Source of the DNA: Moniliella sp. 'wahieum'
Lineage: Eukaryota
DNA: 64,000 nucleotides
Direction: 5' to 3'
Assembly: GCA_003971905.1 (NCBI GenBank)
Contig: RSEE01000025.1
Span: 1-64,000, forward strand
A program made the translations under genes and the position numbers. The notes under the pieces were generated by a model. The model made no database searches. It saw only the letters and a list, made by a program, of their open reading frames with translations, and was not told the DNA's origin. Positions 5,976-61,700 of this stretch are shown in pieces. The number at the start of each line of letters is the position of its first letter. Positions within the stretch are counted from its first letter, which is position 1.

Positions 5976-8900
5976 CTACTCGTCGACCAGGGCCATCTTG
6001 ACCTTACCACGGTGGGTGTTGCGGTCGCGCTCCACCCCAAACGCACCGAGCACGAGTCGAACACGGCGAGCGTCACATCCTTCGACAAGCCCGAATGCGA
6101 GCGAGGGATGGTAACCGTAAACTTCTCTGGGTCAAACTCACAGTCGCGGTCGAAGGTGATCAACCCCTCAAGCCATATTCGGACACATACACCGCCACAC
6201 CGTTCCGGAAGGCACGAATGACGAACGCCTTGCTCTGCAGTGCCACCGTCGTCCCATCTTGGCTCTTGATACCCTTGGACTCCATCGCCGCCACCAACAA
6301 TTCGTTCTTCCGTCCAATCGCCAGCCCCACATAAAACTCCACACTCGCCCGCCCAGCCATCTGCGCCGCACGGTGCCGCCGGTTCGAGTTGGCCAACATC
6401 ACCTCCACTCCATGCTTAGACGCCAAGTGCGGGTCGGCTTGCTCATACCCAATCGCCGAAGCCAGCTGACGGTGCGCCAGCACGTCGGGATACCGCGAAT
6501 GGGAGAGTGAAGTGGGTGTACATATCGGTAGCCAGACCGTATGGCCAAACTGATCAGCTGCCACAGTGCCAGAGCAGAAATACTCGGCTGACAGCATACA
6601 GCGCGTAGCCATGATACGGACCAGGGTGTTAAACTCAGGGAGCGAAGGGTCGATGCACTTTCCAACGAGTCTGCCAACGCGCGCGACGACGACACATCTA
6701 GTTCAAATCCTTTCTTCACCTTCAAGATTTTGGCCAGCATCTCAAAGTTGGACGAAGGGGGGCACCGTGTCGCCGAAGCACAGCAGTTTGAGGATAGGCT
6801 TGTTGCACGCGCCGCGCAACACTGATGTTGGCCAAAAGCATAAACTCCTCCACCAACGAGTTGGTCTCAAAAAGTTCCTTGCGCTCCACGTCAATCGGGC
6901 CAGTCATCTCAGCGCTATCGAGGTGGATCTTGACCTCGGGCGACGCCAGGTTGAGTGCACCGGCTTCGATACGTTTCTGTTTGAGTTTGATAGCCAAATG
7001 GTTGAGCAGCCGAATTGACTCGGTGATGGCGTCTGTCTTGCTGGCATCGTCCTTGCGCCTCTGGGCATCCTCGTAGGTAAATGCTTCCTTGGACGCAATC
7101 ACGCTCTTGTGGAAGCGGACATTCACAATCTCCCCTTCTTCCGTCATCTCCCACACACACGAAAACGCGGCGTTCCACGTGAGGGCGCAGGGAGCAAAGG
7201 TTGGTGCCCAACAGAGAGGGAAGCATGTCAATACGCTTGTCGACCAAGTAAACCGTCGTACTGCGCGACGCAGCCTCCTTGTCCATGGGAGTGCCAGGTC
7301 GAACAAAGTAGGAGACATCGGCAATGTGCACTCCGGCCTCAATGTTGCCATTGGGAGACGCTTGGCGTGCAGAGCATCGTCAATGTCTTGGCACCCAGGT
7401 GGATCAATCGAGCAAATGTTCTCATCACGCATATCAACCCGATCGCGCCAACGCGGGCCACCAGCGTCCTTCGCTGGAACAACCCACTTATCGCCTTCCG
7501 GAGGAAGACAATCCAAATGGCTTTGCTAAAGGGGCGGTAGGGCACATCGTGCTCCAGCAGCAAGCTCTCTTGCTCTGCTTCCTTGCTTTCCGCACGACCG
7601 AGTGCTCGGACAAAGTGTCCATCGGGGTAGCGCGATGTGACAGGCCAGTCGTCAATGGTGATGAGAATCTTCTGTCCCAAAAGTTCCTTGGCCTGCCGGG
7701 TGCGGATGCGCACCCTAGGAATCTTGCGGTCGACAGGGCTGGCAAAGAGTGTAGTCGGACCCAGACTGGACATGGCACTTGCCGAAACAGAAGAGTTGAC
7801 CACATGGGCCACATAGGAGCGCCAGTTGCGCTTGACAATGCCAACCACTTTGCCCGTGGGCTTGACTTCCGCCGGATCCTTCTGGCGCGTCTGCTCGGCG
7901 TCCTGCTCTTCCCTTCGCTCCGCAGCCATATCTTCCGCATCAGCCTCCTCCGCTCCCTCCTCCGCATCTTCCCCATCACCACCAGCATCGTCGTTCTTCA
8001 GCGCTTGGTCCATATCCAACACGCATCCGCCCCGGCTCGCCATTCGCTCCGAGGGAGAAGCTCAACCGCAACAAAGTCGCCATCTACCGCACGGTTCATT
8101 GCCTCCCGCCCGAGCAGCAGGATGGGCTGGTCCATCCCGCGAACATTGACTGATGCTTCAAGGTAGTTGTAGGTCGAAGCATTGAAGAATCCCGTATACA
8201 GCGCACCCGACTTGACGCCGGCATCCAGCTCGTTGGCTTCGAGATAATCAGGGTAGTAGACGGTGTGCTTCTGGAGCGTCGTCGACTCTTCCACATTACG
8301 GGCCGACAACAGGTCGGTCAACCTCTGTGATACATTTTCGGGCAAGCCCGATATGTAGTCCTTCACCCTGAGTGCCTGGATTCCCTCTGCCTTGGCTTTG
8401 CGTACACTGTCTCCATCATCCGAAAGCATCACCACCCGAGCAGGGGGGAAGATGGCCATGAGGTGGCTTGAGTACCACTTGGTTGCAACGCGGATCGCAC
8501 GTCGTTGGCGTCGTTGGGGGACTCGTTAGTCATCGATTGGGTTGCAGTAGCACTAGGAAATCAAGGGCGTATCAGTAACAACAAAATAATAAGAGGGGGG
8601 TGCACGTACGCGCTGAATTGGTTCCAGTATACCCAGAAGTTCCGCTCGGGCTCCTGGATGAGGGCTTGCAGACGGTTGAACAGGGGCATACTTCGATGCC
8701 TTACCTCGTCCAAAACAGTTTGGAGGACGATAACGTTGGTGAAGGCGGGTCTGGCCGGGTGTTTGTCATCGGCGGGTAGCATGGCCTCCAGCAGGTCCAT
8801 TTGGTGAAGGACAATGTTGGTGTCGATGAGTAAGTAGTAGTTGCCTTGGCCGTCAGCTAGATGCTTGTTGGTACTCAATGGAGTGCCAGTAGCGTCAGGG

Positions 8901-10513: not shown

Positions 10514-11536
10514 ACCTTTCAACTAGCTAATATCGTTCGTTCCTTGTCCCTCTCTACTTATACCGCACGTCCACCTTTCAGTCTGTGCAGCATACCACAC
10601 ATCATCATCACCTTAGTCACTTTTCCTATCGTTCGTTCAATAATACACTGTCTCGTTTCATTCTTCCCAATATTCGATTGTGATCATCGGCCTATAGTGT
10701 ACATACCAAAAGCAAATTCTACTCGGCTCTCATCTCATCCTAATGTTATTATAAGGTTTGGGGTGTCCTTGCCGAAGAGGGGCGAACGCGAGAAGATACA
10801 GCGGGGGCAGGATCATTGCATCATCCACTTCACCACACTCAGTGCGCGTCTGATCGACGGATGGGCGAAAGAGATCCTTTCGCAACTAATACGCACTGTA
10901 TTCCGACTCGTGGAGCTCCCGTCGAGAAATGTAGGATACGGCCTGCGGCCCAAGGATACAATTTTATGGAGAGGGTGTGTCGAAAGCGGGGGTCAACAGG
11001 AGGGTCAACGCGTCAACGTACGTCGAGAGTTGACGTTCAAAAAGCTCAAAGCAACGCGGGACTTGCGCCTGTGGTGTATTAGATGCAAGAGACGGCAAGG
11101 GTGTTGTGGCTTTCGCGATACTATACATAAGAATAGTGAGAGGCGTGTGGAGAGCAGATAGAGGTGATAAAAATGCGCCGCTGGGGCTGCTCTAGTCCGA
11201 TGGGCCCTGTGGCCTGGACTGAGTAACTAAGTACTGACATAGTTCCCTCCCGGCTGGCTATAACACCGAGGCCTGAGGCCTGAGGACACTGAGGCCTCGC
11301 GCTGGCGACCGAAACGTAACGTCGAGTTGGACACTTATATTATCCCGCTGTCTTCATCGGCTAATGGGGGCTAAGATGCACAGCGGCGCTACTATAAGCT
11401 TTTCGGCTTCGGCACTGCGCTTTTCTCTGTCGATATATATTTGCTCCGCTGCATATAGCCCCTGCTGCGCCTAGGATATACCCTTCTCGATTATCTCGAT
11501 TTTCCCGCCACCACCACCCCTGGTTACGCCCCCAGC

Positions 11537-24283: not shown

Positions 24284-25024
24284 GGCGAGGTAGATGGCAG
24301 GCAAACGCCACGGCCAGGTAGAGAGGTTGGTGGTGGGGTTCCCTGTACTGCTCTTGCACAGACAAAGTGGCTGGCACAGGCTGGCTGCTGCTCGAAAAAG
24401 GAAGCAGGTCGCACCTGATGAACGTTTCAGAGGGAAAGACTGGCAAGGCGCCCAGGTCCAAGGCCGCAGAACTTGGCGGACCACGTGCAGCTCCACTTCT
24501 TCTGCCTGGGCATCACGCACCATGCACCCATCCTCCCAACGGCGATCCCCACTGGCCTCTGAGGCGGATCCTGAACAGGCTGGTTGGGGTCTAGTGACTA
24601 GTGACTAGCGACTGCAGGCACCCTGTAGGCCCGACCACCCGAAAACAGACGATGACAGATGCCAGCGGCCACTGACTGAAATGACGAGGTAGTGACCCCA
24701 GGATTGATCCATCCACTGCATTATGAGTGCACGAGGTGCTGCCCAGGCCTGCAGCAGAACGACGCCAAAACCATTGCACTACTGACTAACTTGGTACGGA
24801 TGAAGGACTAACAAGGTAGACAGGCAACTAGCTCAACTAAAATCGGTCAGACTTCCACATGAAGCATGACAATTTGTTCGAAGGTAGGTTGGTTAAGATG
24901 GGGTAGAATTACACATGTCGAAACGGGTATGCAGCGACGCGTCCCCGACCACATTGAGACAAAGCTTGCACATGTCGTGCGCAGTATTTTTGGGAGGTAC
25001 ACTCCCCCAAGAAAGATAACTACC

Positions 25025-25930: not shown

Positions 25931-26506
25931 TCCGCGCCTGCGTCCTGTAAGACTCAAGGGCAACCAAGGAATCATGCATCGCTCAGGCTGAGCACGTGTG
26001 CAACGTTCAACGTTCAGTTTGGAATGGGAGCTGCTGGCCAGACGGGCGGGATGTGATGTGGCCTGTGATGTGGGGTGTGGCATGGGGCGGTCGATTTGAA
26101 AGCAGCAGGGGGGGGCGCATGCAGCATGGCGGGTGGGAGACGCGCTGCCGGAATCGTCTGTGCGGGGCCCTTTTCATGCACGGGGCACGGCGCCTGTGGG
26201 AGGCGCGTGGGCGATTAGAAACGAGCCATTAGTAATGGCTGCACGGCGCCAGTGTGCTGGGCGCCGGGGTGCGGGGGGCGGCGGCGGCGGGGCGAGTGTG
26301 GGTGGGTGCACCGGCTGCCCGACGCACCCCAGCCGGTGTGTGCGCTGCCCGAGCAGGCTGAGCTCAGCGCTGCCGGAAGGAGCCGGGAGAAGAGGCACAG
26401 CGCGGGCAGCAGCGCACAGCAGAGGGCGTATATGCTGCCCGCCCCTCACCCTCTCCACCCGCTTCCACCGCCGTCGTCGTCCTTGTGCTGCTGCGCTGCT
26501 GCGCCC

Positions 26507-32611: not shown

Positions 32612-33725
32612 ATGGCTTCCCGCAAGAAAGTGCTTCTCAAGGTGCGTCCTCCTGCCCCTCCCGTCTGTGCCTTCGCATGCCCTGTGCCCAACTAACCGTG
32701 GCTCTGTGTCTAGGTCATTGTGTGTAGCATCATGTCCCTCGCCCCATTTGCCAGCCCATCTGCCGGCGCCGTTCGCTGCCGTACTAACCCTTGCCTCCTT
32801 CCTCCCTCCCTTGTTTCTGCGCCGTAGATCCTTGGTGACTCGGGGTACGTCGTCCTTCCTCTGTCCTGCTGGCCCATGTGACTGTGGCCCAGGCAGCGGT
32901 GCTGACCTGTGTGCTGTGTGGATCCAGCGTGGGCAAGACGTCGCTTATGAACCGATGTACGTTCCCCTCCTCATCCGCACGCATGCCGCTGATAGGCACT
33001 ACTACGCGTTGACGCTCGAGCGCTGACCCTCTTCCCGTCGACCAGATGTCAACAACCGATTCTCCTCCGCGTACAAGGCAACCATCGGCGCCGACTTTTT
33101 GACCCGCGAGGTTCAAGTGGACGACCGGACGGTCACGATGCAGGTGTGTAGGGTGTACCTGCGCAACAGGGAGGAATGCGTGTGCTGACTCCTCTTTCTG
33201 CAGCTGTGGGACACGGCCGGGCAGGAACGCTTCCAGTCGCTTGGCGTTGCCTTTTACCGAGGCGCCGACTGCTGCGTACTGGTGTACGACGTGAACAATG
33301 CCAAGTCCTTTGAGACGCTCGACAGTTGGCGCGATGAGTTCCTCATCCAGGCCAGTCCGCACGACGTGGATAACTTCCCGTTTGTCGTGCTTGGCAACAA
33401 GATTGACTGTGAAGAATCCAAGCGCACCGTGTCGCAGAAGCGAGCGACGTCTTGGTGTCAGTCCAAGGGCAACATCCCCTACTTTGAGACGTCGGCCAAG
33501 GAGGCGATCAATATTGACGAGGCCTTCCAAACCATTGCCAAGAACGCGCTGCAACAGGAGGCCGAGACGGAGCTGTACGTGGTGTGGCACTTGCTACTTG
33601 TTTTTGTCTGTTGGGGCGAGTGAGACTGACCCGGGCCCTGGTTTTTGTTTTGCCAGCTACGCCGACTACCCCGACCCGATTCGCATCGACAGCGACAGCA
33701 CACCCAGTCTGGCTGCAACTGTTAA
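32612..33725 (+). CDS. YPT7: Rab7/Ypt7 GTPase, 7 exons
   Basis: Exons 32612-32641 ([10 protein letters not shown]), 32714-32719 (VI), 32828-32844 (ILGDSG), 32928-32956 (VGKTSLMNR), 33046-33143 ([13 protein letters not shown]), 33204-33574 ([33 protein letters not shown]) and 33657-33725, ending GCNC* (CXC prenylation; one frameshift). Confidence 0.96.
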
Positions 33726-34977
33726 CTGTTAACCTGGGCCCCCGCCGCTCCCACGCCTGAGGCTTGTTCTACTTCTTGTGTACGCGCGCGTGCCAGCCTG
33801 CACCGCGCTTGAGTTTTGTGTTTTGATCTCCTCTTCCCTCTTGTTGGATGCATGGGGTCTGGGGACAGCAGGTAGCACATGGTGAGATTGCAAGGGGGGC
33901 GGAGGATGGGGGGTGCGACTGGGCGCTGCGCACCCAAGCGTATCTGCATCATCGGGGCAGCGCAAGGCAAGTGCTGAAAGAGGGCGAACGAAACCAGTGA
34001 CTCTGGTGACTTGTGGCGCGTGACGGTCAGCGGTCCAACGTTGGGTGGCAGCCGCGCATGATGCTGGATGCTCTCTGATTGCATCGATCCACGAGGCGCG
34101 ATCGTGGATGGTGAGTGGCGATTGCACCGGATGTCCATATCCACCGCTTCACACCGTCACGCGGCCGTACGTCAGCAACGACAACTCAGTACTCAACGTT
34201 AGATCTTAGACCTCGCGAATCGGTGACACGGACAAAGGCAGACAGGAAGGGTGCGTGGCGGGTAAGCTCATCGGTGAGCGATGCGATCCGAACGCGGGAC
34301 GGGCGGTGTGCATGTGCCTGGTGGCCCCCAGTGGGGCAGCGAGCAGCCAGGAGCGCGCGCACCGGTAGGGTTGGTGAGAGGACTGGGTGGATGCTCGGCG
34401 CTCGGCGCTCGGCCAGCCGGGGCTGGGCTGCGTGTGGATGCGTGTATGCTACGCGCTAATGCCACGTGTCACGCGCATCACTCGATCACTTCTCCTGGCA
34501 CGCCTCAGGCCTCAGGCATCATGCATCATGCATCGCAACGCACTGGCTAGCCACCGGCAACTGGCTAGCGATGCATGATGCATGATGCGTACCACACCGA
34601 TGAGATGGATGGCACAAATCACTAGCCACTGACCGCTGACTCTGCTCTCTCCCGTGCCTATCCACTATCGGCTAGCCGCTACACCCACCCGCCTCGTCCC
34701 CGCCGCTTAACCCTTGCCTCCTGGCGCACAGCATCGCCCCCGCCCTTGCTATCATCATCGCCACCGCCATCATCATCGCCACCGCCATCGCCCTCCCTCC
34801 CGCCTTGTCCCCGTGACCCAGTCCTTCGGTCTGAGCACCGTCCCCGCCGCCCCACCTTCACCTTCCTTCTCCCTCCTGCCTCGCTGCCGCCAAACCACCC
34901 AAGCCCTGCATTCTCACCGCTGCCCCACTCCTGCACCCCCCCCCCCCCCCCTCGTCCGAATCGCCAGCCTCTTCCAA

Positions 34978-43989: not shown

Positions 43990-45807
43990 ATGGACTTTGC
44001 CAAGCTCGACATTGCCAACGTCCAAGCCAAGGCGATCACCGCCCAGCAGGCATCCAAGGCAGTGCCAGCTCGATCTCCAGTGAGACGGCCCTAACTGGCG
44101 TCGCTTCGTGCCCCGTCTTTCTGAAGGAGCATGCGCCCATCACCTCCATCCACTATGTGCCCGCCTCCCCCCTCGCTTCCACTGGTCCCGAGGCTCTGGC
44201 TGGCGAGCGAGCGGTAGCCAACCCTCTGTTTGCTTCCGTTCCAGGTGCCCAGAGCGGGGCCCTGTCCTCCCAGGCCATCCAACGCTACGCCGTCACCGCC
44301 GGCCCCCGCGTCCAGCTCTTCTCGACTCGCACCGACAAAGTTGTCAAGACCGTCTCGCGCTTTACCCGATGTCGCTCGTTCGGGCCACATTCGTTCTGAT
44401 GGCCGTCTCATGGTTGCCGGTGATGATTCGGGCCTGATTCAGGTATTTGACGTCAACTCTCGCGCCATTGCGGACCTTCCGCGGCCACAAGCAGTACGTC
44501 CGATGTTCCATCCTTCTTTCCATCTTTGGATGGTGGAGCGTACGCTGACCCCGGTTCCTTTCTAGTCCTGTTCATGTGACGAAGTTCTCTTCCGCTCCCA
44601 CTCAAGTCCTTTCTGCTTCGGATGACCAGACGGTGCGGTTATGGGACATGCCTGACCAGAGCGCAGTTCGCATCTTTGATCGGCACACGGATTATGTGCG
44701 TGCTGCAACCGTGAGCCCCGACAACCCTCTCGTGCTCAGTGGATCTTACGATGGAACGGTGAGGCTATGGGATTCGCGCGTAGAGGAGAACGGGGGAGAG
44801 GTGATGCGGATGGAGCATCGTTCCCCGGTCAATGATGTTACTATCTATCCAACTGCTGGCGGCGGCGTGGCGCTCAGTGTTGGCGGTCCCGTGCTGCGCG
44901 CATGGGATCTAATGATGGGAGGGCGCAGTCTCAAGGCTGTGTCAAATCACCAAAAAGCGATCACCAGCTTGGCCATCACCATGGACAGTGATGTGGCAGG
45001 CTCGTCGGACGAAGGATCGCAGAGCTTACGGATCTTGACGGGCGGACTGGACCAGTTGGTCAAGGTGTATGATCCTGCCCAAGATTTCCGCGTTACCCAC
45101 ACAATGCGCTACCCTGCCCCTATTCTCTGCATGGCTCTCGCACCAGATGAGAGCCAACTTGCGGTGGGCATGTCGGATGGGACGATGTGCATCCGAAAGC
45201 GGGACCTCAAGGCCTCGGAGGTGGCTCGACGCCAAGATAGGAGAACGGCTTTGTTGGGCCGAGGCTTGGACAACCAGCTGGCCCGAAGCAGTGCGTTGGT
45301 GGGAGAGGCGTCGGTACAGGACGGCGGCGTGAGCGCTCAAGATGACTTGCGGGCCGATCGACCTCGCTCGGCTCGTCTCAAACCATACGACAAGTATCTC
45401 AAATCGTTCAACTACCATGGCGCTTTGGATGCCGTGCTGCGCAAAGGAGTTGCCCCGAAGTGACATTTGCTCTTCTTCTTGAGCTCATTCATCGCAGTCC
45501 AGTATCAACGGTTCAAACGGGCAGCTCGGAAGCCCTCAGGATCGCTGTGATGGACCGCGACGATGTGGGACTAGAACCGTTGCTACGTTTCTTGTTGCGT
45601 CATGCTGTTGAGCCTGCCTACATTGACATTGTCGCTGATACCCTGGATGTGATCATTGATGTGTATTCGGGCATGCTGGGCCAGTCGCCCTTAGTGGACG
45701 AGACATTTGGACGAATTTGGAACAAGATTGATTCCGATCTCGATTCACAACAAAGAATCATCCAGGTCAAGGGAGCCCTGGAGATGATCTGGTGGGTTCA
45801 TCCTTGA
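43990..45807 (+). CDS. UTP15: U3 snoRNP WD40 protein Utp15; frameshifted
   Basis: RYAVTAGPRVQLFS..KTVSRF..RSDGRLMVAGDDSGLIQVFD; SASDDQTVRLWD..HTDYVR; NHQKAITSL; UTP15_C-like LKPYDKYLKSFNY..ALD..LLLELIHR. Intron 44494-44565. Divergent from CBC2 across about 290 bp. Confidence 0.9.
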
Positions 45808-47504: not shown

Positions 47505-50056
47505 GGTGCTGCTGGGGTCGTGTGCAAGATCCAGGAGGGGGAACGGTTGAAGGAGGAAGAGGAGGAGGCGGTGGTGGTGGAAGGAAAGGATTCTGGGCAG
47601 GACAACGCCGGGCGCAGTAATGAAAGGGATCCAGGAGAAATGGCCAGACGCGCGAGCGGCGCCACTCTTGTTTGGACACAGCCCCGTGCTTGGATTTTGA
47701 GCGGGTGTCTCTGATCGACCCTGCGCCTGGGCCACCCACCAATTCCCCACTTGCTTGCAAGCACCATCCTACAAGAACAGAAAGAGGAGGCGGAGCGCGA
47801 GGGGCTGAGTACAGCATCACAACATCCGCTGCATTTTGTCCCACTGCCATATGCGGTCCCGAAATGGCTACCGGTCGCTATTCGAGGATAGCGAGATGAT
47901 CAACCAAATCAGCCTGGCCACCGTAGAGAGCATCAAGTTATGAGGCCTCATAGCGACGACGAAATGGCGGCCAATCATGAGTGAAAGGAAGGCAACCCCA
48001 ACTCATTCTATCTGTAGCGTCGGATGCTATATAAGTAGCCCGTGAGATGGAATGCCATGTGTGTTAACCGAGTGTGTCCGTCGTGGCCGTGGTACTTATA
48101 CATGTCCACCGCCACCAAAACTGAACGGAAACTGATACGACCAGCTCTTGATATGATGCCCCCAAGCGGAGCAGCACACAGTCAAGAGTCAGAAAATGGT
48201 CCACAGGAGATCGAGTTGGATTAGTGAAATCATGGCGAGCAAAAGAGCAGGTAACGGAGAGAGAAGAGGATGAGAATGACGTGGAGAGAGAAAGAGGGTG
48301 TCATGGGGCGGGCGCCGCCAGGGGGCCCGCCCCGGGGGTTTTAAGGGGTACAATCCCTTGGGGTCCTAGGTCGCCAGCACTGACCAGATGCCGGGCACTC
48401 CCTTTTCAGGCTCCGCTGTGGGGACAATGTCTCCCCTTGATGATTGACGGGTTTTGCATGTGTGGGCTGCTCGCCACCATCACATGTAGCCTCATCCTCT
48501 CCCCCCTTTCTTGAAGAAGGAGGGACAACCTCCATTCCTCCGTTTCCGGCTGCGATTGATGTTCTTCCGGTCTGCGCTTACAGAATAAAACACGTTTTCT
48601 CCATCAGACACACATAGCCTTGATTTAGCACGGTACAATCGCCAACAAGAAGGGTTTGGCCTGTGCGGTTCGACGTATTTGGTGATCGGGGTTGGACATG
48701 TGGACATGTGGCCCGGTGGTCTTGTTGACTTGGGCCTTGTGTACCATGAACGGGGACTTGGTCACTCGCAGGCAACTTTCCTGGGGCTTTCATCCGCCGT
48801 TCCCCCTGACCCAGGAGAATCGGCGAGGCAGATGGAGGCGGCCATGCAGGGTCCGGCCAAGAAAGCGTCGCGTGGCTTCCCATCCGCACCGGTCGCACAT
48901 TCCATCCCCAAGTCGTACCGCGTGGCGGGGATGGTGGTGGGCAATGGCGCGAGTGTTGGGCATGACGGCACGCGAGCCAGTCTCCTTTTCCCCATGGGGA
49001 TGCGTCACATGTCACATCACGTATCACATCGCATGCTCCATGTCACATGTATGTCATATCACATGTCGCATGTCACATGTGATGTCGACACCTCTGGGCA
49101 ATGCACCTCCTCCACCGTATCCCATGTGTCCACCATCGACCCCAATTACCTACAACTGAGTCTCGATGGAGATGGTTCCCCGCTCCGACGTGTACCACGT
49201 TCATTCGTATCCACACACGCTACTCGGATATGAGATCTGAGACGGGATGGCGGGCCCCAGAAGGTCCTGATCTGGTGGCGATCCCCTTGGTTCCCTACTA
49301 AACGTTAGTGTGTGTTGGCGCTACCAAAAGCAACACACGCCGGATGGGCATGTCGGTTTAGTAGGCGCAGCGTTTCTTCGTCCACGGGCCTTAACGCTCT
49401 GTCGACGATCTAGTTACAGTAGAGAGATATTCAAAGCAGTTCATTTTGCGTTCAGCGTACGGAACACGTTCAACGTAGGCTCACCGTCCATCCCTTTCTC
49501 ACCATAACCCGTCCACGTCAACCGCGGCAATCAGCAACGTTCACCTGTCATTCACCAGGGGCAGCCGTCGCCGGCTCGAGCTGGCCAACGGGGCGCAACT
49601 GCATACAGTTCATGGGCGGAGACAGGGCGGAGACATGCAATACTGAGATGAAACAAGAGCTAGACAACGAACAAAGGGAGATGAGGCAAAGGTAGGGGAG
49701 CGGGGGGGTTAATGCGGTCGTACTCGGCCGTGTTGCCTGCAACAACTGATGGCAGAGCGTGATGAAGATCAAGAGAGGACAAAGCCTAGAGGCACAACGA
49801 CCCCGTGGGACAGAAAGAAACGAGCCAATGGCCCAAAGCGATTCACAACCGGAGGGGAGAACAAGGGAGACGTGCAAAGGAGGTCCGGACAAAAAGACAC
49901 TGGCGTGACAGGACATGAGAAAAGAAGGCGGCGTACCCGAGGGGGACAGCTCGTAGACTTCAGCAACGTTCGACAGTGAAAGAGCAAGAAGACGTGAGAG
50001 GAACTGAAGGTCTTCCACGAGTACCTTGACAGATGATGCAAAAGAAATGAAGAGGT

Positions 50057-52947: not shown

Positions 52948-54612
52948 GTCGCGGGGAGCGGTGGGAGGTGGTGGTGGGACGGAGGGGCGACGGTGGTGCT
53001 GAGTGCGGTCTGCGTTGCAGTTTTATCGCACAGGCGCTGCTGCTGGCCGGCCGAGCGGCGGGAAAGAGCAAGGCAGGCGGCCGGCCGCACAGCAGGCAGG
53101 CACGCGGCAGCAGCAGCTGCGTCTGCCAGTCGCAATGCCGCCTGCAGGCCACGGCGGGCCCAACGCCGCAGCACCGCGCCAGTGTCCCGCAGCGCTGCGG
53201 GTTCGCTTGCGGCCGGCCAGGCGCAGCCAGCTGCAAGGTACCGCACCGCACCGTCCTGCGCCTGCGCTGTGCCACCCCCCAGCACCCCGGCGGCCGAACG
53301 TGTCTTGGCCGCCACACGCACCCCGCCAGTGTCCCCACGGGCGGCCCGCACTCAAACCCCGCATGCGCCCCCTACGCGTGGGGACGACCACGACGACCAC
53401 CACTGGGACGACTGGCGGACAGCGCCGGGGGCCGTCTGGAGCGGCGAGCAAGGGCGAGCAAGGGCGACGTAGGCCACGCACTGGCGACACGCCCGCGGGC
53501 GGTGAGCGCTCTGGCGCTCTGGCTGCAGGTGCTGCCTGGAGGCAGTGTGGCCCTCAGCTGACACGCCATCGGCATGGCATCACACACGCCAGCGCGGGGC
53601 TGCCTTGCGTCGCCCCAGTGCCGTCCCTGCCGGCTGACCTGCTGGGTCGCCGTCCTCTACCATCGTTCGTCACGCGTCACGCGTCACTCGTCGCTGGAGT
53701 CACTAGTCGCAGTCACTCGTCACCGTCATCGCGCAACCAGCCGCCTTGGCGACGCGTGATGCATGGCGAGGGTGCATCCGCCTGCCGAGGCTCGGTGCCC
53801 TGGGTGGCCGCCACATGGAGGCACAGCAGCAGTGCTCCCATACTCCCTGCCTGCCGTCTGCCCTCGCCTAGTGTCCGCCGTCTGCCCACCCCTAGCACCT
53901 CGTCCCCACACGGCCTGATTCTGATGCGAGGCTCCTCCCCATCCGCCCCGCCGGTGCTCGTTTGATATGGGGCGTGCTAACGTGTTCTTTCTCCATCTCA
54001 GATCGCGGGCATCACGCCTCAGGCCCTCAGGCCATCAAGCTCATCAAGCCGTCCAAGTCATCGGTCATGACGCTGACGCCGGACGGCTATGCGAAGGGCG
54101 GGACGTTGGACATGTTCGACGTCGATATGCGATAGCGCAGCCAGGGACCGCCGAACGAATGGTGTGCCCCCAACGACTGTTTAGTTTAATCGCCTGTCTC
54201 TGCGGGGGGTGCGGGGGCGGACGATGTGGCAACGAACAGTGGTCTTCGATCGTATTGCTTCTCCGCTGCGTCCCAACACACCTGCAGCCCGGGGACCGCC
54301 GGCTGGAGACCGAGCCTGAAGCTTGAAGCTTGAAAAGCTCCGTGGTGCCCCACCCCTATACACTCCTGTTGTTGTTGGGCGGTTGAGCTTGGGCGCAGCT
54401 CTGCTAGAGTGAGCGCAAAGCACATTGGTGTTGGGCGTGAGCGTTGTTAGTACGGTCAAGAGTACGTTGAACTTTCTGAGATCGGAGATCGGAGATCGGA
54501 TGCCCAGACTTGGCGGCGATCGATGATCGATGATTAATGATTGGGCCGGTGATCAAATGATTTTGGTAATCGGTGATGGTGTGCATGGTATGCTCAGCGC
54601 TCACCCCACGCA

Positions 54613-54654
54613 TCACATGTGATGCATGATGCATGATATATGATGCATGATGCA
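54613..54654. repeat. 7-bp lattice array TSA-[4-bp palindrome]
   Basis: TCA CATG TGA TGCA TGA TGCA TGA TATA TGA TGCA TGA TGCA. Confidence 0.9.
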
Positions 54655-55237
54655 GCGCAGGATGCCCCAACGAGTCTGTGCAGCTCCACAGTTTGACGTT
54701 TTAATTGCTGCTCTCCACCAACACTGCGTCCGCTCATTAAAAAACGAATATGCAGTTTTGGTCTCAGGCTGAGGTCTGCCCCTCTGCCCGGCTGCCCGGC
54801 TGACCGTGACCACTGTCTGACCAGTTTGGCCAAGCACATGCACTATCCACAGGTCAAACCGTGGGGAAAAGTTCGCGGGGCGCTGGAAAGGTGGCACACA
54901 TGCACGGGGATTCCATACTGCGCTCGTAAGAGAGTCGCTCTCGTCTCTACAGGGGAATATCCACCAGTACTCAGTCTGAGTACTCTCAGTATACTCTTCT
55001 TCAGAACCCAGTCTGAGTACTTGGTACTTGGAAGCCGTATTGGACGTACAGACGGCTGGTGCGGAAAGATATATACCAGAGGCATAGCAGGTATATGGCC
55101 TGGTATTGAATTAAGCTTTAGTGTCATGTTGATTAGCACAACACGTGGGGGCCTGTCTTTCCGGCCAGGGCGCCGAAGCAGGGGATGGAATATTGAACGC
55201 GTTGTCGTTTCCAACAAGAAAAGAACCATTGAGACGA

Positions 55238-55296
55238 ACTAGTCACCAGTCACTAGGTCACTAGTCACTATCAGTCACTAGTCACTAGTCGCTAGT
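55238..55296. repeat. Degenerate (TCA CTAG)n array
   Basis: actagtcaccagtcactaggtcactagtcactatcagtcactagtcactagtcgctagt. Confidence 0.85.
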
Positions 55297-56957
55297 TTTC
55301 TACATACTGACTTTGTTGGTCACAGTTTCCTGCCTATTCTTTCTCCGATCGACATGGCCTGTTGGCAGATCGCATCTCGTACGGACATCAGCATGATGCG
55401 CAACATGCATGTTCGCTCAACGGCTCCTAAGCGCCTAAGCATTGGGCTCAGGCGCTCTCGGCAGGCGCTCGCTGCAGGCGCTCAGGCCATTACTGTGGGG
55501 GTAGCGCGTATAGCATGATGCATGTGCGTGACTGTTGGTGACTGCGGTGACTGGAGGGTCAGGCGGTCAGGACGGTCAGGAGACTCGGCCAGCCAATCTC
55601 AGATGTCATCGATCATCGCCTTTGGCCTACAGCCGCCACTCGACCGCCCACCCTCCTTCGGCTTTGGTGGCGGCGCCGCGACCCTAATGCTCTCATCAGC
55701 ACCATCAGCGTCTCAACGCCAGCGTGCCCCCGCGCCGGTTCGTCTAGGAACCAGTACTGTGCATTGCATCAGATGGATAAACGTATAAACACGTTAAACC
55801 TTATTATACGCTTTCCGTTTATCCGTTGCGCGTTCCGCGTTCCGCGTTATCGATTATCGCCGTTGGGGGACTTGACGTGTGACGTTCACAGTTAACATTT
55901 AAACGTTAACGCGTTAACTGGTTAACGGGTCAACGTTTAACGTTACGTTGAACGTCGAACGCGCCCCTGTGGCAAATAGGCCAGAACTAGGGGTTTGATT
56001 CTGGCATTGGGGCCATGGGTTTCCTGAGACCTCAGCCGGAAGCCTGAGACCTGTTCATTCCCCACAGTAGTGGCAACGAGGCCGAGGGGCCCCGTTGGGG
56101 TAGCTTACTATCTGATGATGGGGAGAAAGCCAGTCATCCTACTGTTGCGCTACTTGCTCGGTATATTGCAGCAACTAATCCTCCACGCCATCACCCAGAG
56201 GCAGTCTCAGACAAGAATGCACCAACCGAGCGGAGACGGAATGCGCCCCGGGTTGCAGGAACGTACATAGAGCGGTACTACGTACGCGCCGGGGGAAACG
56301 CCCCTGACAAGTACATTGATGAGCATATGAATGGTGGCACACAGGCCGCGGGAGAAAGCGAAACAAGATGGTAAGACATTCATGGAAGGATGCGGATGAG
56401 AAGCATGGACCCAGAGGGAAAGCGGGGTTAGGCCTTAGGGGGAGTGTGTTAAGGAGTCGAGAGGGATAGGCGGGGAAGAGGGGCGGAGATCGAAACCACA
56501 GATGCGGAGGTGAGAAGGAACGTGACCACACACCTCCGAGCCAGGAGATCAGAGCGGTCTTTGCTAGGGTCATAATAGTGCAAATATGCCCCCCCCTTCT
56601 CCTCTGCTTTAGTCCCGCAGGTTGGACGGATGAGAAAACTGATGACGAGGATTACACGATAAACCATCCAGAAATGGAACGAGGGAGATACAACGCGCAG
56701 GGTTAGGTGGCAGGGTGCAGATGTAAAATGTCATAATGTAGTGGCCTGGGCCGCACACCAAAAGCATCATCCCCTCGATCTGGATGGCGTATACTTCCCC
56801 AACAAACGCGACGAGGACACCCCGTTCAAATACAGGGTCAAGTGGTACGGATCGGTAGGGTGATTGGTTGTCCATCATAACCTTCAGGGCCGATGTAGGA
56901 ATGCAAGGATGGGTTTTTGGGCCCTCGTAGAGGTAGGATGCGAGGAGGGTCGCCAGC

Positions 56958-58231
56958 TTAAAGGACTCTTGGCAAAGTAGGGGTGGTGTTGCCATTGCGC
57001 AGCCTGTGGTCATAGTTTCCCTTACCGGGCTTGGAAGTAGATGAAGGTGGTGGTGAAACGGTCCGGGCGCCGTCAAGCCAGAGTTCGCGTGGGCTGCGAT
57101 CGGGGCGCGGAAGGGGGCTTTCCTCTGCGAAATGACTTTGAGCTGGATCTACCATTTCGACTGGCGTAGGAGAGGCAGTGTTGTCCGTACGTTCTTCTTC
57201 TCTCTCCGTTCCTCCTCGTCATGGTCAAGCAAAGACTGTCGAATGGCCTGTAGCAGCATGCTCTGCTCCAGTTCACCTGCTGACGGGGCGACTCGCCCCC
57301 TCGGCCGGGCGTTGGGCCGCCTAGGAAGCTCCCTTGATCCTGGGTCCGTTGGCATAGTCGGGGCCCCTTCGCCGCCCGAACGGGAGGGTGCAGACGCACT
57401 AACGTGCGATGACCTGAAGGCAACGGGTACCAGGTGGCCATCGACGTTGCGCATAACGATGCGACGGTTTGCCTTACGCGCTTGAGCAGCCTTGGCAGCC
57501 TCGAGCTGTGCCTCCCAAATAGGGCGGATCTCATCGACGGTTACCACGTACGGATTGGCAGTATCAAGGCCACGTTGAATTGGATCCATATCTTGAACAA
57601 GGACAGGCCCGGTCGGGCCGATTTCCGGGGACGATCATGAAGCAAGACGTTTTCGAGGACGGCACGGGTGGTTTGTAGATGACCCCAAAGTCGACCTTCA
57701 TGCAAAAGGGGCATGGCACTGGTGGGCTGGTGGGCGGAATGGACTGGAATGGGTCGGGACGACGGGACTGGACAAAGCATTCGGTACAGATGTGCTGGGC
57801 AGCAACGTGTACGATTTAGTGGTGAAGGATAAACGAGCATGCAGATAGGGCATTCAGTCGGAACTACTCGCCCCGCAAAGCAGCCAGCCAGTTCATCCAC
57901 CTCATCGACACCGTGGTAGAACGGGGCAAGACGGCGAGAACAGATGAGCGTCTTGACAATGTCGTGCGAGTAGTCCTGGATCGTATTTGCATACACTCCA
58001 GTCGTCACAAGAAGACCAGAGTCAAAAGTGGCAGGCCAGCAGATCTCAGACTTGGAGGTGCGCCGGCCATCGGGTCCGTGGGGAGGGCGGGAGGGGGAGA
58101 GGGAGGGAGGGGGACACAGGGCCGAACTGGGGCCGGAACTTGGGATGGAGATCGATGGCGGGCCGGGCATGAGAGCTGCGGCTACGGTTGGATGAGGCGG
58201 TTGCGACCTCGCGACCGTTGGCCTGGCCCAT
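56958..58231 (-). CDS. SIP5: Sip5-like RING-finger protein; frameshifted, 3' end uncertain
   Basis: MGQ start; TFDSGLL..GVY..QDY..IVK.LI..RRLAPFY.G; ECPICMLVYPSPLNRTRCC; VTVDEIRP.WE..L..A..ARKANRRIVM; UIM-like ELEQSMLLQAIRQSL. Confidence 0.8.
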
Positions 58232-58712
58232 GGTGCGAAGCTGGTGGGAAGAGAGGATGTAGGGTCACACAAGACGGTGGTGGTAATAAGCGTTGAGTTG
58301 CTAAAAGCGCGGTGGTTACGCGTTACGCTTCAAGCTTCAAGTTTCAAGGGCGACGGACTGAGCCCCCTCAGCGCCTCAGCCTCAGCGCGCTGAGCACCCC
58401 TCGGCGTTTCAGTGATTCAAAAAGCTGAACATCAAAAAATGGCCTGCGCAGAGGACTATACTAAGCTCCTCAGCCGGATGAGCGCGTCAGCTGGCCATCT
58501 GCTCGTGGCCTCGGAATGCCTAAGCGGCTCAGCGCGCTGAGATGCTGTGGACCAGGGGCATAGGTCGATAATCGATAACTAGTAACTGGTACAACTACTA
58601 CAGCTTCAAGCTCCAAGTTCCAGCTTCTCGAACTCTCCTTAACTGCTCCTCAAGCTTCAAGCTTTTCAAGCTCAAATAGCTTCACTGGAGTCGCTATAAT
58701 ACTTGACTGGCT

Positions 58713-58757
58713 TCAAGCTTCAAGCTTCAAGCTTCACTAGTCACTAGTCACTAGTCA
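58713..58757. repeat. 7-bp lattice array with an in-register switch of spacer palindrome
   Basis: TCA AGCT TCA AGCT TCA AGCT TCA CTAG TCA CTAG TCA CTAG TCA. Confidence 0.9.
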
Positions 58758-61700
58758 CTTCTGGCCACTGTGACAATCAATAGTCACTAGTTCCTGTGTC
58801 TAGATGTGACATGTGACTAGTCACTATTCACGCTGGTCGTAGCCACATCTGTGAGATACCCACGCACGCAGAAAATTCACATCTGCCGCTCCGATGCTCG
58901 AACATTAACCATTGCGATCACCGAGAGATCATCGAGACAGTCGATCGCCAAGACCATCAATGCCGGGGTCGTCATGACAAGCATCTGTGATGGATTGCCT
59001 GATGCGTTAGCGCTTAGCGCACAAGCTCCATGCGCGCTCAGGCTGAGCGCTGCGTAAGCGGCAGGTCCACAACCACATGTCCCAGCAAGCAAATTGGCAT
59101 ACCCATAGAATTCACGGTGCTCAATCATAGCGCGCTCCGTGGTTCTATATAGATTCGCTCAGGGTTGCAATTAAATGGAAAAGATTGTGAAGCTGAAGAT
59201 GCAGTGAAGAGAGCTCGATTGGTTCAAAACGTTCCAGATTCAAAGTAAGGCATTGCAGCTGAAACGCGTGAGCGGAGATGCGCAGACGTTAGAGAAGCTC
59301 GCAAACGGGTGCATGATTACCCAAAGGGACATATATGCGTAACGCAAAAAAAGGAAATGTCGAACGTGCGTTGAACGTTCAGGTCAAACATGCTGGAGCG
59401 TGGAGATCAATCTGCCGTAGTCACGTCCCCAAAGTGCAGGTGCTATGCAGACGTAGGGAGAAGACAGAATCTGTGGATCTAATATCTCTAGCCCGCGGAC
59501 TAAGGATGGGAGGAAGAAGAAAAGAGTGATGCCAGACTCGCGCCGTGCTATGGGGCCCTTGACATGGGCGTTCCCAGTCCGGGCGCCCGTCCCGGAGCTT
59601 TTAAATTGGGTGCAATCTGTTGGGGTTCGGAAGGGGACTATTTTGGAGAGAATCTGTTCGCCAATGCTCTCATCTCGTCGGGGAATTGGAAGAGAATACA
59701 GGCTCCGTTGGCTCGCCGCAAACGTGTGTCCGCATTGCAGCGTGCGTCATCGTGGGTTTGGCCTTGGGACTTACGAAGGGGATCGGCGCGATCCGCTGGT
59801 TGGCCATAGCCAGCGTTTTCGTCCGTAGCGCGCACAATAAAAGGAAAATCGCACTATGACAATGGATGTGGATACCAGTGGCATGATGCTTGCATGTTCG
59901 CAGAAGGACAGTTTGACTTTCAAGGAGGCTAGCCCTCTCTCTGCGATCTGACCCTCGGTCAATAAGACGGGCCAACAGACAAATGGTAGTGGAAAGAGAC
60001 AAGGGCCTCACTGTAGTTGTGTGTAAAATAACGGGTCGTTGGAAGGATGGGTACATGTCACAAAATGCCGATAGTGACGCTTGACGGAATGAACTCACCC
60101 AGGCTCACTCCGTTCACCCCCCAGCGACCGCCCAGGAGCGGGCACAACGGAAACAGCTGACCATAATGTGTGGCCATGCAAAACCAAACGAAGGTGTGGA
60201 CCAGGCAGGCGGAGAGAAGCTGTTGGATGTTGACAATGACTAATGACCAATGGTTAACTGATTCACTTGCAACCAACACATGCGTTGCAACAGCGGGCGT
60301 GTGGGGATATCTCGGCGTTGGCGGGGGTATCTGCGCCACAGTTGCAGCAGTGGCACAGATAGCTGTACAGGGTCTAGAGAAGCACCAAGCGCCGAACGTC
60401 GAGGGTCGAGTACCGAGCGCCGAGCTGCGATGATCGAGGAGGAGTCACATGTCACATCACCCACATCGAGACTGACTGAGTACTGAATTCAGTGTTGAAC
60501 GGGGGTGCGCTTCATGTTGCATGCTAAGCACATGCGCTGGGTCGATGGAGGTGGGGAGACCAGTGAAGTAGTGCAACGCTTGACGACAGATCAAACGAAA
60601 CGACACGCAGGCCTGTTCACACGGCCCTATCTGTTCACGTTCACAGACCATGCCATTGCACCGATGGCCCAACGGCACTTGGCAGTGCGACACGGCGTAC
60701 TTGTCCGCTTGCTAGCGACTAGTTACTCCGAGCGCATCGCTGCTACACCCGCCGGCTGCTGCTCACGCGGCTTCTGCCGGCGCCGGGAAAGACCAGCGTC
60801 AGCGCCCAGCCTCAGCGAAACCGATCATCTCGGGGATCGATCATCGATCATCGATCACATCGCCAGGGCCGCCTAGCACACTGGGCAAGTGACTATAAGT
60901 GACTAGTGGCGTGTGACTGGCTCAGCGCTCCGGCTGGGCACTAGCCTGCACTGGCTCGTACTCATGCATCATGCATCATGCATCATGCTGCATGGCAAGT
61001 GACCTAGGTAGTCACTAGTCAGCGCACAGCGCCCAGCGCCGCCGGGGAGATGCAGCGCCCAGACGCAAGTCCTGAAGGCGTGACGCTCTCCTACACGACC
61101 CCCATCACGTCCACGTCCACCGTGTCCCCCACCCGCCAAGACGAGCGGCCAGGTGCACCAACCTGCTCTCCCCGACCCTCCCACACGCTGCTCTCTTGTC
61201 TCGCCCCGCCGTCTCTCAGGGCTCGCTCGTCACCCCGTATCTTCTGCCCCTGCGCCTCTCCGCGGCCCTGGCGCTCCTGCTCCTTCTGCTCTACTCCTAC
61301 TTCTGCTGCCGCTACCCCTGTCGCGACCCCCTACTTCGGCTCCTGCGTCTTCCCCCCCCTGCTATCATCCATGACCCCTCCAACTCCCCCCTGCCCCCGC
61401 TCCCGTCCGCTCCCGCAAGCGCGGTTTGGGCGAAGTTGATATGGACGACGTCAGCGCCGCATCCAAGGCAGTTTCCCCTGAACCTACTTTTCACTGCCGC
61501 TCGGCAAGCGTTTGCATCGCAGTGCGCTCTGTGCGCCTACCCCTCTCCATTCCCCCCTGCTTCCCCCCGCGACCCAACCGACGGCGTGACCGCAAGCTCA
61601 TTGGCCCGCCTGGACGAGTGCCTTTGCCGCGTGCATACAGTGCGTGGTGATGCGCACTCTGGTCCGTCAGCCCCCAGCGCTGGGTCAACCTGGACTTCTT

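Follow-up and report, generated by a model that had tools for sequence, protein, structure and literature searches.

Self-complementary heptamer arrays that follow one grammar in the intergenic DNA of a smut-related fungus

RESULTS

Genomic setting and inventory of the arrays

We analysed a 64-kb stretch of DNA (positions 1 to 64,000 of contig RSEE01000025.1 of Moniliella sp. 'wahieum'; referred to as the window) for short tandem arrays in which T[C/G]A alternates with 4-bp palindromes in steps of 7 bp. An intergenic 7-bp lattice with interchangeable palindromic spacers had been proposed in a preliminary description of this DNA, and the observation is confirmed as real and far beyond chance: T[CG]A-N4-T[CG]A occurs 111 times in the window and carries a palindromic N4 in 56 cases, the share expected by tetramer count being 6%. 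These 56 matches form 40 separate chains of 1–6 links each, as compared to means of 3.9, 3.5 and 7.1 chains (maximum 14) in Markov shuffles of order 1, 3 and 5, respectively (60 shuffles per order), so that the enrichment of palindromic spacers over a Markov background is borne out within the window. All counts on arrays given here refer to this one 64-kb window, plus metagenome loci used for comparison.

The window comes from the nuclear genome of a fungus in the Ustilaginomycotina (smut-related); it is gene-dense and otherwise ordinary, with a G+C content of 54–69% in 2-kb windows. The top named relative of a UTP15-like open reading frame (ORF) at 44549–45463 is found in Tilletiaria anomala (65% identity), followed by Malassezia, Ustilago and allies. 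Pfam searches of the ORFs returned fungal Zn2Cys6 and 'fungal-specific transcription factor' domains together with housekeeping matches (Dis3/Rrp44, mitochondrial carrier, kinase, Tho1, iron-sulfur subunit, GDI and CBM21), and no match to a transposase, integrase or reverse transcriptase among the 123 window ORFs scanned. Neither Rfam families nor tRNAs were found in the window, nor were element-like inverted repeats (the 25 longest of 86 listed are array-on-array or weak matches), and 53500–61200 holds no larger duplications able to carry arrays. Genes are not lacking in the 7.4-kb span of the finding, as a predicted SIP5-like gene lies inside it on the minus strand (56100–58231), with arrays on either side. 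This gene was recognised by its conserved cysteine motif, and its SIP5_N score from Atlas is 0.90, the level of a lead; its reading frame is split across four ORFs in different frames, which suggests introns or frame breaks.

The arrays within and around this span, and those found elsewhere in the window, are as follows (no strand is assigned to any of them; copy numbers follow the unit):

53667..53728, decayed array: CGTCACG in 2.9 exact copies at 53668–53687, then GTCAC units at uneven spacing
54313..54334, CTTGAAG (AAGCTT + G) array, 2.6 exact copies
54518..54542, composite GATGATC to AATGATT: spacer TCGA changes to TTAA in register, mirror positions 1 and 7 differ
54610..54654, composite array: 16-bp perfect palindrome around ACATGT (TCA to TGA switch), then CATGATG, TATGATA, CATGATG
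55236..55296, about 8 AGTCACT units, decayed through substitutions and small insertions
55606..55615, single link TCA-TCGA-TCA
58315..58348, composite CGTTACG to CTTCAAG in register, about 85–115 bp upstream of the inferred start of the SIP5-like gene (minus strand)
58565..58587, composite GATAATC to AGTAACT with A/T centre; two mirror pairs differ
58650..58664, CTTCAAG, 2.1 copies, within a decayed AGCT-rich stretch (58590–58690)
58710..58759, longest composite: CTTCAAG x3.9 to AGTCACT x3.7, with one TCA in common
58804..58828, TGTGACA x2, then AGTGACT, which continues into a 12-bp palindrome, GTGACTAGTCAC (strand switch)
59007..59020, GCTTAGC x2, A/T centre
60444..60457, TGTCACA x2
60475..60486, ACTGAGT run of 12 bp (TGA-GTAC-TGA)
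60836..60857, GATCATC x3.1 (ATCGAT + C)
60962..60988, CATCATG x3.9 (ATGCAT + C)
61009..61040, AGTCACT run, then GCGC register with degenerate centres TCA, ACA, CCA
11268..11297, CCTGAGG (AGGCCT + G), between the mitochondrial-carrier ORF and the kinase ORF
24591..24613, AGTGACT, 2.6 exact copies
26001..26016, GTTCAAC x2.3 (AACGTT + C), immediately upstream of the Fer2_3-matching ORF
34184..34210, mixed A-N4-T hexamer palindromes: AGTACT C AACGTT AGATCT T AGA
34502..34588, composite CCTCAGG to CATCATG, then an inverted copy CATGATG 35 bp on; together a strong hairpin
49004..49086, decayed TGTCACA array of about 11 units, with a TCA to TGA switch at its end

Nearly all of the spacers named in the preliminary description were recovered. 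Within the span these are CGCG at 53670, AGCT at 54317 and 58713, TCGA followed by TTAA at 54524–54540, TCGA at 60841, CATG, TGCA and TATA at 54613–54650, and CTAG at 55258, 55275, 58734 and 61012; outside of it they are GGCC at 11274 and 34505, CTAG at 24595, ACGT at 26007, GTAC followed by ACGT at 34186, TGCA at 34519 and 34576, CATG at 49005 and 49073, and GATC at 49231. Two cases hold in part: GTAC at 60958 is present with T[CG]A on one side only, and of the GCGC spacers at 61022 the first follows TCA and the next two follow ACA and CCA.

One grammar, many units

The grammar can be stated in several equivalent ways. The arrays can be written as (T[C/G]A + 4-bp palindrome)n or equally as (6-bp palindrome A-N4-T + one base)n, and both forms amount to an odd 7-bp palindrome xyT-N-Ay'x' repeated in tandem; the earlier picture of two dyad centres 3.5 bp apart with a 7-bp register is thus a correct description of a tandem odd palindrome. 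As many as 14 of the 16 palindromic tetramers are used as spacer (AATT and CCGG are missing), with no strong favourite among them, and the arrays comprise at least 12 unit types in 64 kb. TRF and exact-run scans gave 44 exact period-7 runs of at least 14 bp, all consisting of short units standing head to tail. An odd-palindromic unit is found in 26 of the 44, and 25 of these 26 have a T-N-A centre (chance for the T-N-A class 2.7%); the central base of the 25 T-N-A arrays is C/G in 22 cases and A/T in 3. For the 17 exact runs of at least 2.5 copies the unit is a 6-bp palindrome plus one base in 14, and in 13 it is A-N4-T plus C or G (binomial p 1e-21). The 7-bp step can also be seen when counting hexamer palindromes: successive A-N4-T palindromes in non-ORF DNA lie 7 bp apart in 27 of 150 cases, 6 bp apart in 1 and 8 bp apart in 2. 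Nearly all of the most over-represented 7-mers of non-ORF DNA are units of the lattice. The arrays themselves are short, the longest exact runs reaching 27 bp, and they typically have 2–4 exact copies and up to about 10 decayed ones.

With regard to genes, 29 of the 40 chains lie outside ORFs of at least 200 aa, the part of the window free of such ORFs being 40% (p 4e-5), in agreement with the proposed difference between coding and non-coding DNA. The 11 chains within these ORFs are single links, except for a two-link chain at 53670, and their number is about what chance predicts for the window as a whole; the Pfam-matched ORFs of the window hold no array of at least 14 bp. Arrays are found upstream of genes (58315–58830, 26001 and 33717–34588) as well as downstream, i.e. 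3', of genes (24591, 55236–55296 and also 11268).

Period, palindromy and centre are needed jointly

The grammar is specific with respect to period 7, palindromy and the T-N-A centre, and all three are needed jointly. At the threshold of 2.5 copies, period 6 is represented by 5 runs and period 8 by none. A 4-bp palindrome inside the unit is present in 36 of the 44 period-7 runs (chance 0.38), and for periods 5 and 6 it occurs at chance level. When T[CG]A is repeated at 7-bp spacing with a non-palindromic spacer, the number observed (55) equals background (about 47–57 in shuffles). The palindromic share among matches of the form X-N4-X, with the same trinucleotide on both sides, is 43 of 83 for TCA/TGA and 9 of 19 for TAA/TTA, and it is 13% or less for each of the remaining 30 trinucleotide pairs. 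Single-copy odd heptamer palindromes in non-ORF DNA outside the arrays were counted for all four types of centre (80 T-N-A, 63 A-N-T, 98 C-N-G and 105 G-N-C). Among arrays of at least 14 bp there are 25 with a T-N-A centre versus 1 for all other centres together, i.e. 1 from 266 single-copy palindromes.

Some heptamer arrays in the window break the grammar. The longest of them have the units GAGATCG (54478–54500), CGCGTTC (55829–55848) and GCTCGGC (34393–34413), each of which combines a 4-bp palindrome with a 3-mer one substitution away from T-N-A. Ten non-palindromic heptamer runs still hold a 4-bp palindrome, and 7 of these 10 contain such a near-T-N-A 3-mer (p 0.04); we consider this pattern too weak to build on. 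We also considered the idea of a stop-codon cassette, as T-N-A covers TAA and TGA and their complements, and dropped it, because by our reading several non-palindromic heptamer arrays in the same DNA, such as those of GAGATCG, CGCGTTC and GCTCGGC, carry no stop. The sole period-6 palindromic array of the window, (GCCATG)3.3 at 1514–1533, is a perfect 20-bp palindrome within overlapping long ORFs near the window start.

Run length, boundaries and changes within arrays

The share of T-N-A odd palindromes increases strongly with the length of the period-7 run. It is at chance level for runs of 10 bp (17/565 or 3.0%, chance 2.7%) and rises to 7.3% (14/192), 15.8% (12/76) and 26.7% (8/30) at 11, 12 and 13 bp and to 56.8% (25/44) at 14 bp or more, whereas in the window no such increase is seen for odd palindromes with other centres. 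The run starts are distributed over all 7 phases, and the boundaries have no fixed phase at any length. Chance level in minimal runs, dominance in long ones and phase-free ends point to a tendency to be recopied rather than to a fixed cut.

The arrays are not maintained intact, as can be seen from their decay through substitutions and small indels. Where two runs abut, the changes follow the symmetry of the unit. Among the 18 abutting pairs 13 involve an odd palindrome, and in 7 of these 13 two different odd palindromes are joined in register, with differences restricted to mirror-image position pairs (in one case the centre differs, too); the other 6 comprise 3 single-substitution variants and 3 unrelated units. 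About 0.8 such pairs would be expected by our estimate (Poisson p 2e-5 for the 7 observed). The claim that the spacer changes while the register is kept is upheld by these 7 pairs. Along the chains, 43 of the 56 links are direct, i.e. have the same half-site on both sides, and 13 switch between TCA and TGA, which across a palindromic spacer creates a perfect 10-bp palindrome.

Folded as single-stranded DNA, single arrays form stems with a T-N-A (TCA) triloop and one mismatch per unit. Only one strong hairpin was found among the arrays, made up of the facing CATCATG and CATGATG arrays at 34514–34590, which lie 35 bp apart and form a 21-bp perfect inverted repeat (-31.3 kcal/mol, z-score -7.3) just upstream of an ORF starting at 34626.

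Comparison with known repeats and with arrays in other genomes

Several known systems share single traits with the arrays. Hairpin-forming microsatellites, e.g. CAG/CTG, likewise consist of short head-to-tail units that are likely to expand by slippage, the slipped strand pairing with itself with a regular mismatch; unlike them, the fungal arrays have a 7-base unit, only 2–4 exact copies, many different sequences under one grammar and a strict T-N-A. To our knowledge, most standard repeat surveys cover units of 1–6 bases and skip 7, and surveys stopping at 6-base units would miss these arrays. Dimeric sites with TGA/TCA half-sites (bZIP-like) have inverted half-sites and do not need a palindromic spacer, whereas here the half-sites are mostly direct and only palindromic spacers are enriched. 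Quasi-palindrome mutation by template switching is similar in its strand switches at short palindromes, and the joint change of both arms may be a further point of likeness; it makes or perfects inverted repeats, whereas the main product here is a direct 7-bp repeat, with no excess of long palindromes. The heptamer arrays of bacteria, such as the short tandemly repeated repetitive (STRR) sequences of cyanobacteria, share period 7, tandem order and intergenic location, but they come with one or a few unit types per genome as compared to at least 12 per 64 kb in this fungal host. Related work deals with bacterial heptameric repeats (PMC4692102), with direct repeats of TAACTGA in Beggiatoaceae (PMC4679880) and with template switching at short inverted repeats (PMC13334657, PMC10766183). 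Palindromic microsatellites with (A)n-TATA-(T)n blocks in Fusarium mitochondria, as described in PMC7218506, are also fungal, intergenic, length-variable simple repeats of palindromic design; unlike the present arrays they are mitochondrial, and they lack a 7-bp period, a T-N-A centre and interchangeable spacers.

Among metagenome sequences, (TCACTAG)3 occurs in more than 123 stretches. In seven loci (L016, L022, L026, L058, L059, L071 and L076) (TCACTAG)n stands mostly among mixed heptamer arrays, and most of the units next to it lack self-complementarity (AGTCACC, CTAATCC). The long mixed arrays, with AGTCACC, CTAATCC, ACTGGTG and other units, are seen at 8800–10070 of L071 and in L022, L059 and L076. 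L071, the one locus placed of the seven, is bacterial and Firmicutes-like (Ech hydrogenase, named relatives at 70–75%), and the label of cyanobacterial STRR that we had considered for the (TCACTAG)n loci was withdrawn accordingly. In 41 (TCACTAG)n loci of at least 5 kb (533 kb) odd palindromes with non-T-N-A centres show no rise with run length.

A sister grammar is found in three further contigs, L004, L017 and L034 (G+C 0.43–0.45), the intergenic DNA of which is packed with heptamer arrays (58 heptamer runs in 8.6 kb in L034). Odd palindromes make up 62 of their 120 period-7 runs of at least 14 bp, mostly of the type AG-xNx'-CT, and odd-palindromic heptamers rise from 2.5% to 25.8% with run length. 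Their long ORFs have no Pfam match; a 1214-aa ORF of L017 is 39–44% identical to EukProt records prefixed Skav, a prefix which we take to stand for a Symbiodiniaceae dinoflagellate, and neither Atlas nor Pfam gave an answer for the identity of L034. These dinoflagellate-like contigs resemble the fungal window in period 7, odd palindromes, intergenic location and the same length-dependent rise, whereas the roles within the unit are exchanged: the contigs keep the even dyad CTAG constant and vary in the centre (AGCAGCT, AGACTCT, AGGACCT and others), and in the fungus it is the reverse. The length-dependent rise in both the fungus and the dinoflagellate-like contigs points to a general physical cause with a lineage-specific bias.

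DISCUSSION

Possible origin of the arrays

The reading we favour, at about even odds, is that the arrays are non-functional mutational products of slippage or short-range template switching, in a form that requires pairing of the half-units. The copying step itself and the neutrality of the arrays are what we infer here from the patterns described above. The arrays would be a special class of very short tandem repeats, to which replication slippage or template switching would add new copies, and this copying would be efficient only when the 7-base unit can pair with itself, i.e. when xy is complementary to y'x' around T-N-A. Within the slipped strand the unit would form a small hairpin, looped at T-N-A. 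As both strands read nearly identically, the growing end could re-anneal 7 bases back, which would add a direct copy; annealing to the opposite strand would instead give an inverted copy with the centre flipped between C and G. Variant units would spread only when both mirror positions have changed, and for this reason the spacer would change while register and palindromy persist. Afterwards the arrays would decay through ordinary point mutation. Principles known from other systems support such a process: hairpin-forming loops escape mismatch repair in yeast, template switching turns quasi-palindromes perfect, and palindromic tandem repeats undergo hairpin elongation in vitro. The units also have the two pairable arms that mark a quasi-palindrome hotspot, being odd-palindromic with stems around a T-N-A loop. 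Short-range template switching had already been put forward in the preliminary description, and four observations agree with it: spacers that are free in identity but complementary, mirror changes, switches between TCA and TGA, and phase-free ends. Positions that are free in identity but complementary to each other argue for base pairing and not for read-out by a protein. The mechanism nevertheless goes further than the pattern, and pairing alone does not account for the need for T-N-A (1 versus 25 arrays).

Indeed, a number of points weigh against slippage or template switching as the full account. Pairing by itself is insufficient, as palindromes with A-N-T, C-N-G and G-N-C centres are equally common yet almost never form arrays (Fisher odds ratio 83, p 4e-14 for T-N-A versus other centres), so that the T-N-A requirement is left unexplained; likewise, 22 of the 25 arrays have C or G as their central base (p 0.002), whereas a loop base should be free. 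The account does not say why the period is 7 rather than 5 or 9, and analogous classes with period 5 and period 9 are absent in the window. In the decayed arrays at 53667–53728 and 55236–55296 the pentamer GTCAC is better preserved than the rest of the unit, which is not accounted for either and could reflect selection. The restriction of differences to mirror-image positions is subject to a detection bias, because only expanded variants are visible as runs. Single arrays form weak hairpins (-4.8 to -9.9 kcal/mol), and only 2 of 5 folded grammar arrays clearly beat shuffles (z-scores of -3.7 and -3.5; the others have -1.3, +0.1 and +0.7); hairpin stability as a sufficient cause was rejected in view of these weak folds and mixed z-scores. 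Even perfect palindromes with arms of at least 5 number 80 versus 70 in shuffles (maximum 87), and odd ones 99 versus 73. Long perfect palindromes are thus not in excess, so inverted copying would be a minor route, and fold-back copying as the main route was discarded on the same grounds. Finally, the evidence comes from a single 64-kb window.

A dedicated activity of the lineage, dependent on both sequence and structure, that duplicates exactly 7 bp at T-N-A odd palindromes and has a dinoflagellate counterpart keyed to CTAG seems to us rather unlikely. Candidates would be a nuclease that recognises hairpins and a pathway of polymerase switching or repair. If true, much of the intergenic DNA would have been written by this process, a new mutational signature peculiar to the lineage, and the arrays might have been co-opted as promoter or boundary elements. 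The strict centre, with T-N-A in 25 of 26 odd-palindromic units, is also reminiscent of the specificity of an enzyme that leaves scars, namely a cut-and-paste transposon, with a T-N-A target duplication plus 2 bases from each inverted end (3 + 4 = 7), or a filled-in staggered cut of 7 bases. Elements of the PIF/Harbinger-IS5 group typically have target duplications of 3 bp (T-N-A or TWA) or 4 bp (CTAG), CTAG is the fixed part in the dinoflagellate-like contigs, and two bases from each inverted end would automatically yield a palindromic tetramer. We nevertheless regard such scars as improbable, since the product of a single event, a run of 10 bp, is not in excess (17/565, as by chance) and shows the predicted T[CG]A...T[CG]A phase in just 1 of 17 cases, and since the boundaries lack a fixed phase at any length. 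Moreover, the 14 tetramers would imply about 14 different kinds of element ends, the window ORFs scanned against Pfam gave no match to the enzymes concerned, the 25 longest of its 86 inverted repeats are not element ends, and a symmetric protein cannot impose bases that are complementary yet otherwise free. In the specific form of transposon footprints, with either a 3-bp target and 2 + 2 end bases or a 4-bp target and a 3-base overhang, the idea was rejected in view of the run lengths, the phases and the lack of an element in the window.

That the arrays are working sites, i.e. are read at 7-bp spacing in promoters by a factor recognising TGA/TCA (or GTCAC), or are selected for a DNA shape or hairpin, appears distinctly improbable to us, even though several arrays stand just upstream of genes (that at 58315–58348 about 85–115 bp before the SIP5-like start), those at 26001 and 33717–34588 lie between ORFs on opposite strands, GTCAC is the best preserved part of two decayed arrays, and units of the lattice dominate the over-represented 7-mers of non-ORF DNA. 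As an alternative, the preliminary description had offered a polymeric site for a TGA/TCA factor, and this fails on the spacers: T[CG]A with a non-palindromic spacer stays at background (55 versus 47–57), a freely variable spacer is unreadable by any single factor, and a protein without base preference at x cannot demand the complement at x'. In addition, most links (43/56) are direct rather than the inverted half-sites of a dimer, and arrays are also located 3' of genes (24591, 11268) and are decaying. A sequencing or assembly artefact, which would have to spare coding DNA, produce at least 12 unit types, mimic ordinary decay by substitutions and indels and recur in related design in independent metagenome assemblies, is hardly credible; we know of no base-calling error that produces such a grammar.

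The palindromic 7-base grammar is apparently an undescribed kind of simple repeat, and the corresponding claim stands insofar as no description in fungi, dinoflagellates or elsewhere turned up in the full-text literature searched, most subscription journals being outside it. If the grammar holds genome-wide, the arrays would be an unusually clean natural read-out of replication or repair error, with a fixed 7-base step, a strict centre and a pairing requirement displayed by 14 interchangeable spacers. One could then test which small hairpins allow a slipped strand to go uncorrected and why this holds for T-N-A and not for A-N-T, a question otherwise difficult to approach in vivo. The arrays also suggest that a single local process may write a sizeable share of the intergenic sequence in some compact eukaryotic genomes, and the sister grammar in a distant lineage argues against a curiosity of one species.

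Other palindromic words in the window

GCTCAG/CTGAGC represents a second family of palindromic words in the window. The 14-bp palindrome CTCAGCGCGCTGAG occurs twice in identical form, 147 bp apart (58381–58394 and 58528–58541), and the odd palindromes GCTCAGgCTGAGC and GCGCTCAGgCTGAGCGC of the GCTCAG/CTGAGC family are located at 25981–25993 and 59034–59050. Between 55880 and 55960, GTTAAC and AACGTT palindromes are clustered at irregular spacings of 8, 12 and 16 bp; they are related to the lattice and lie off its register.

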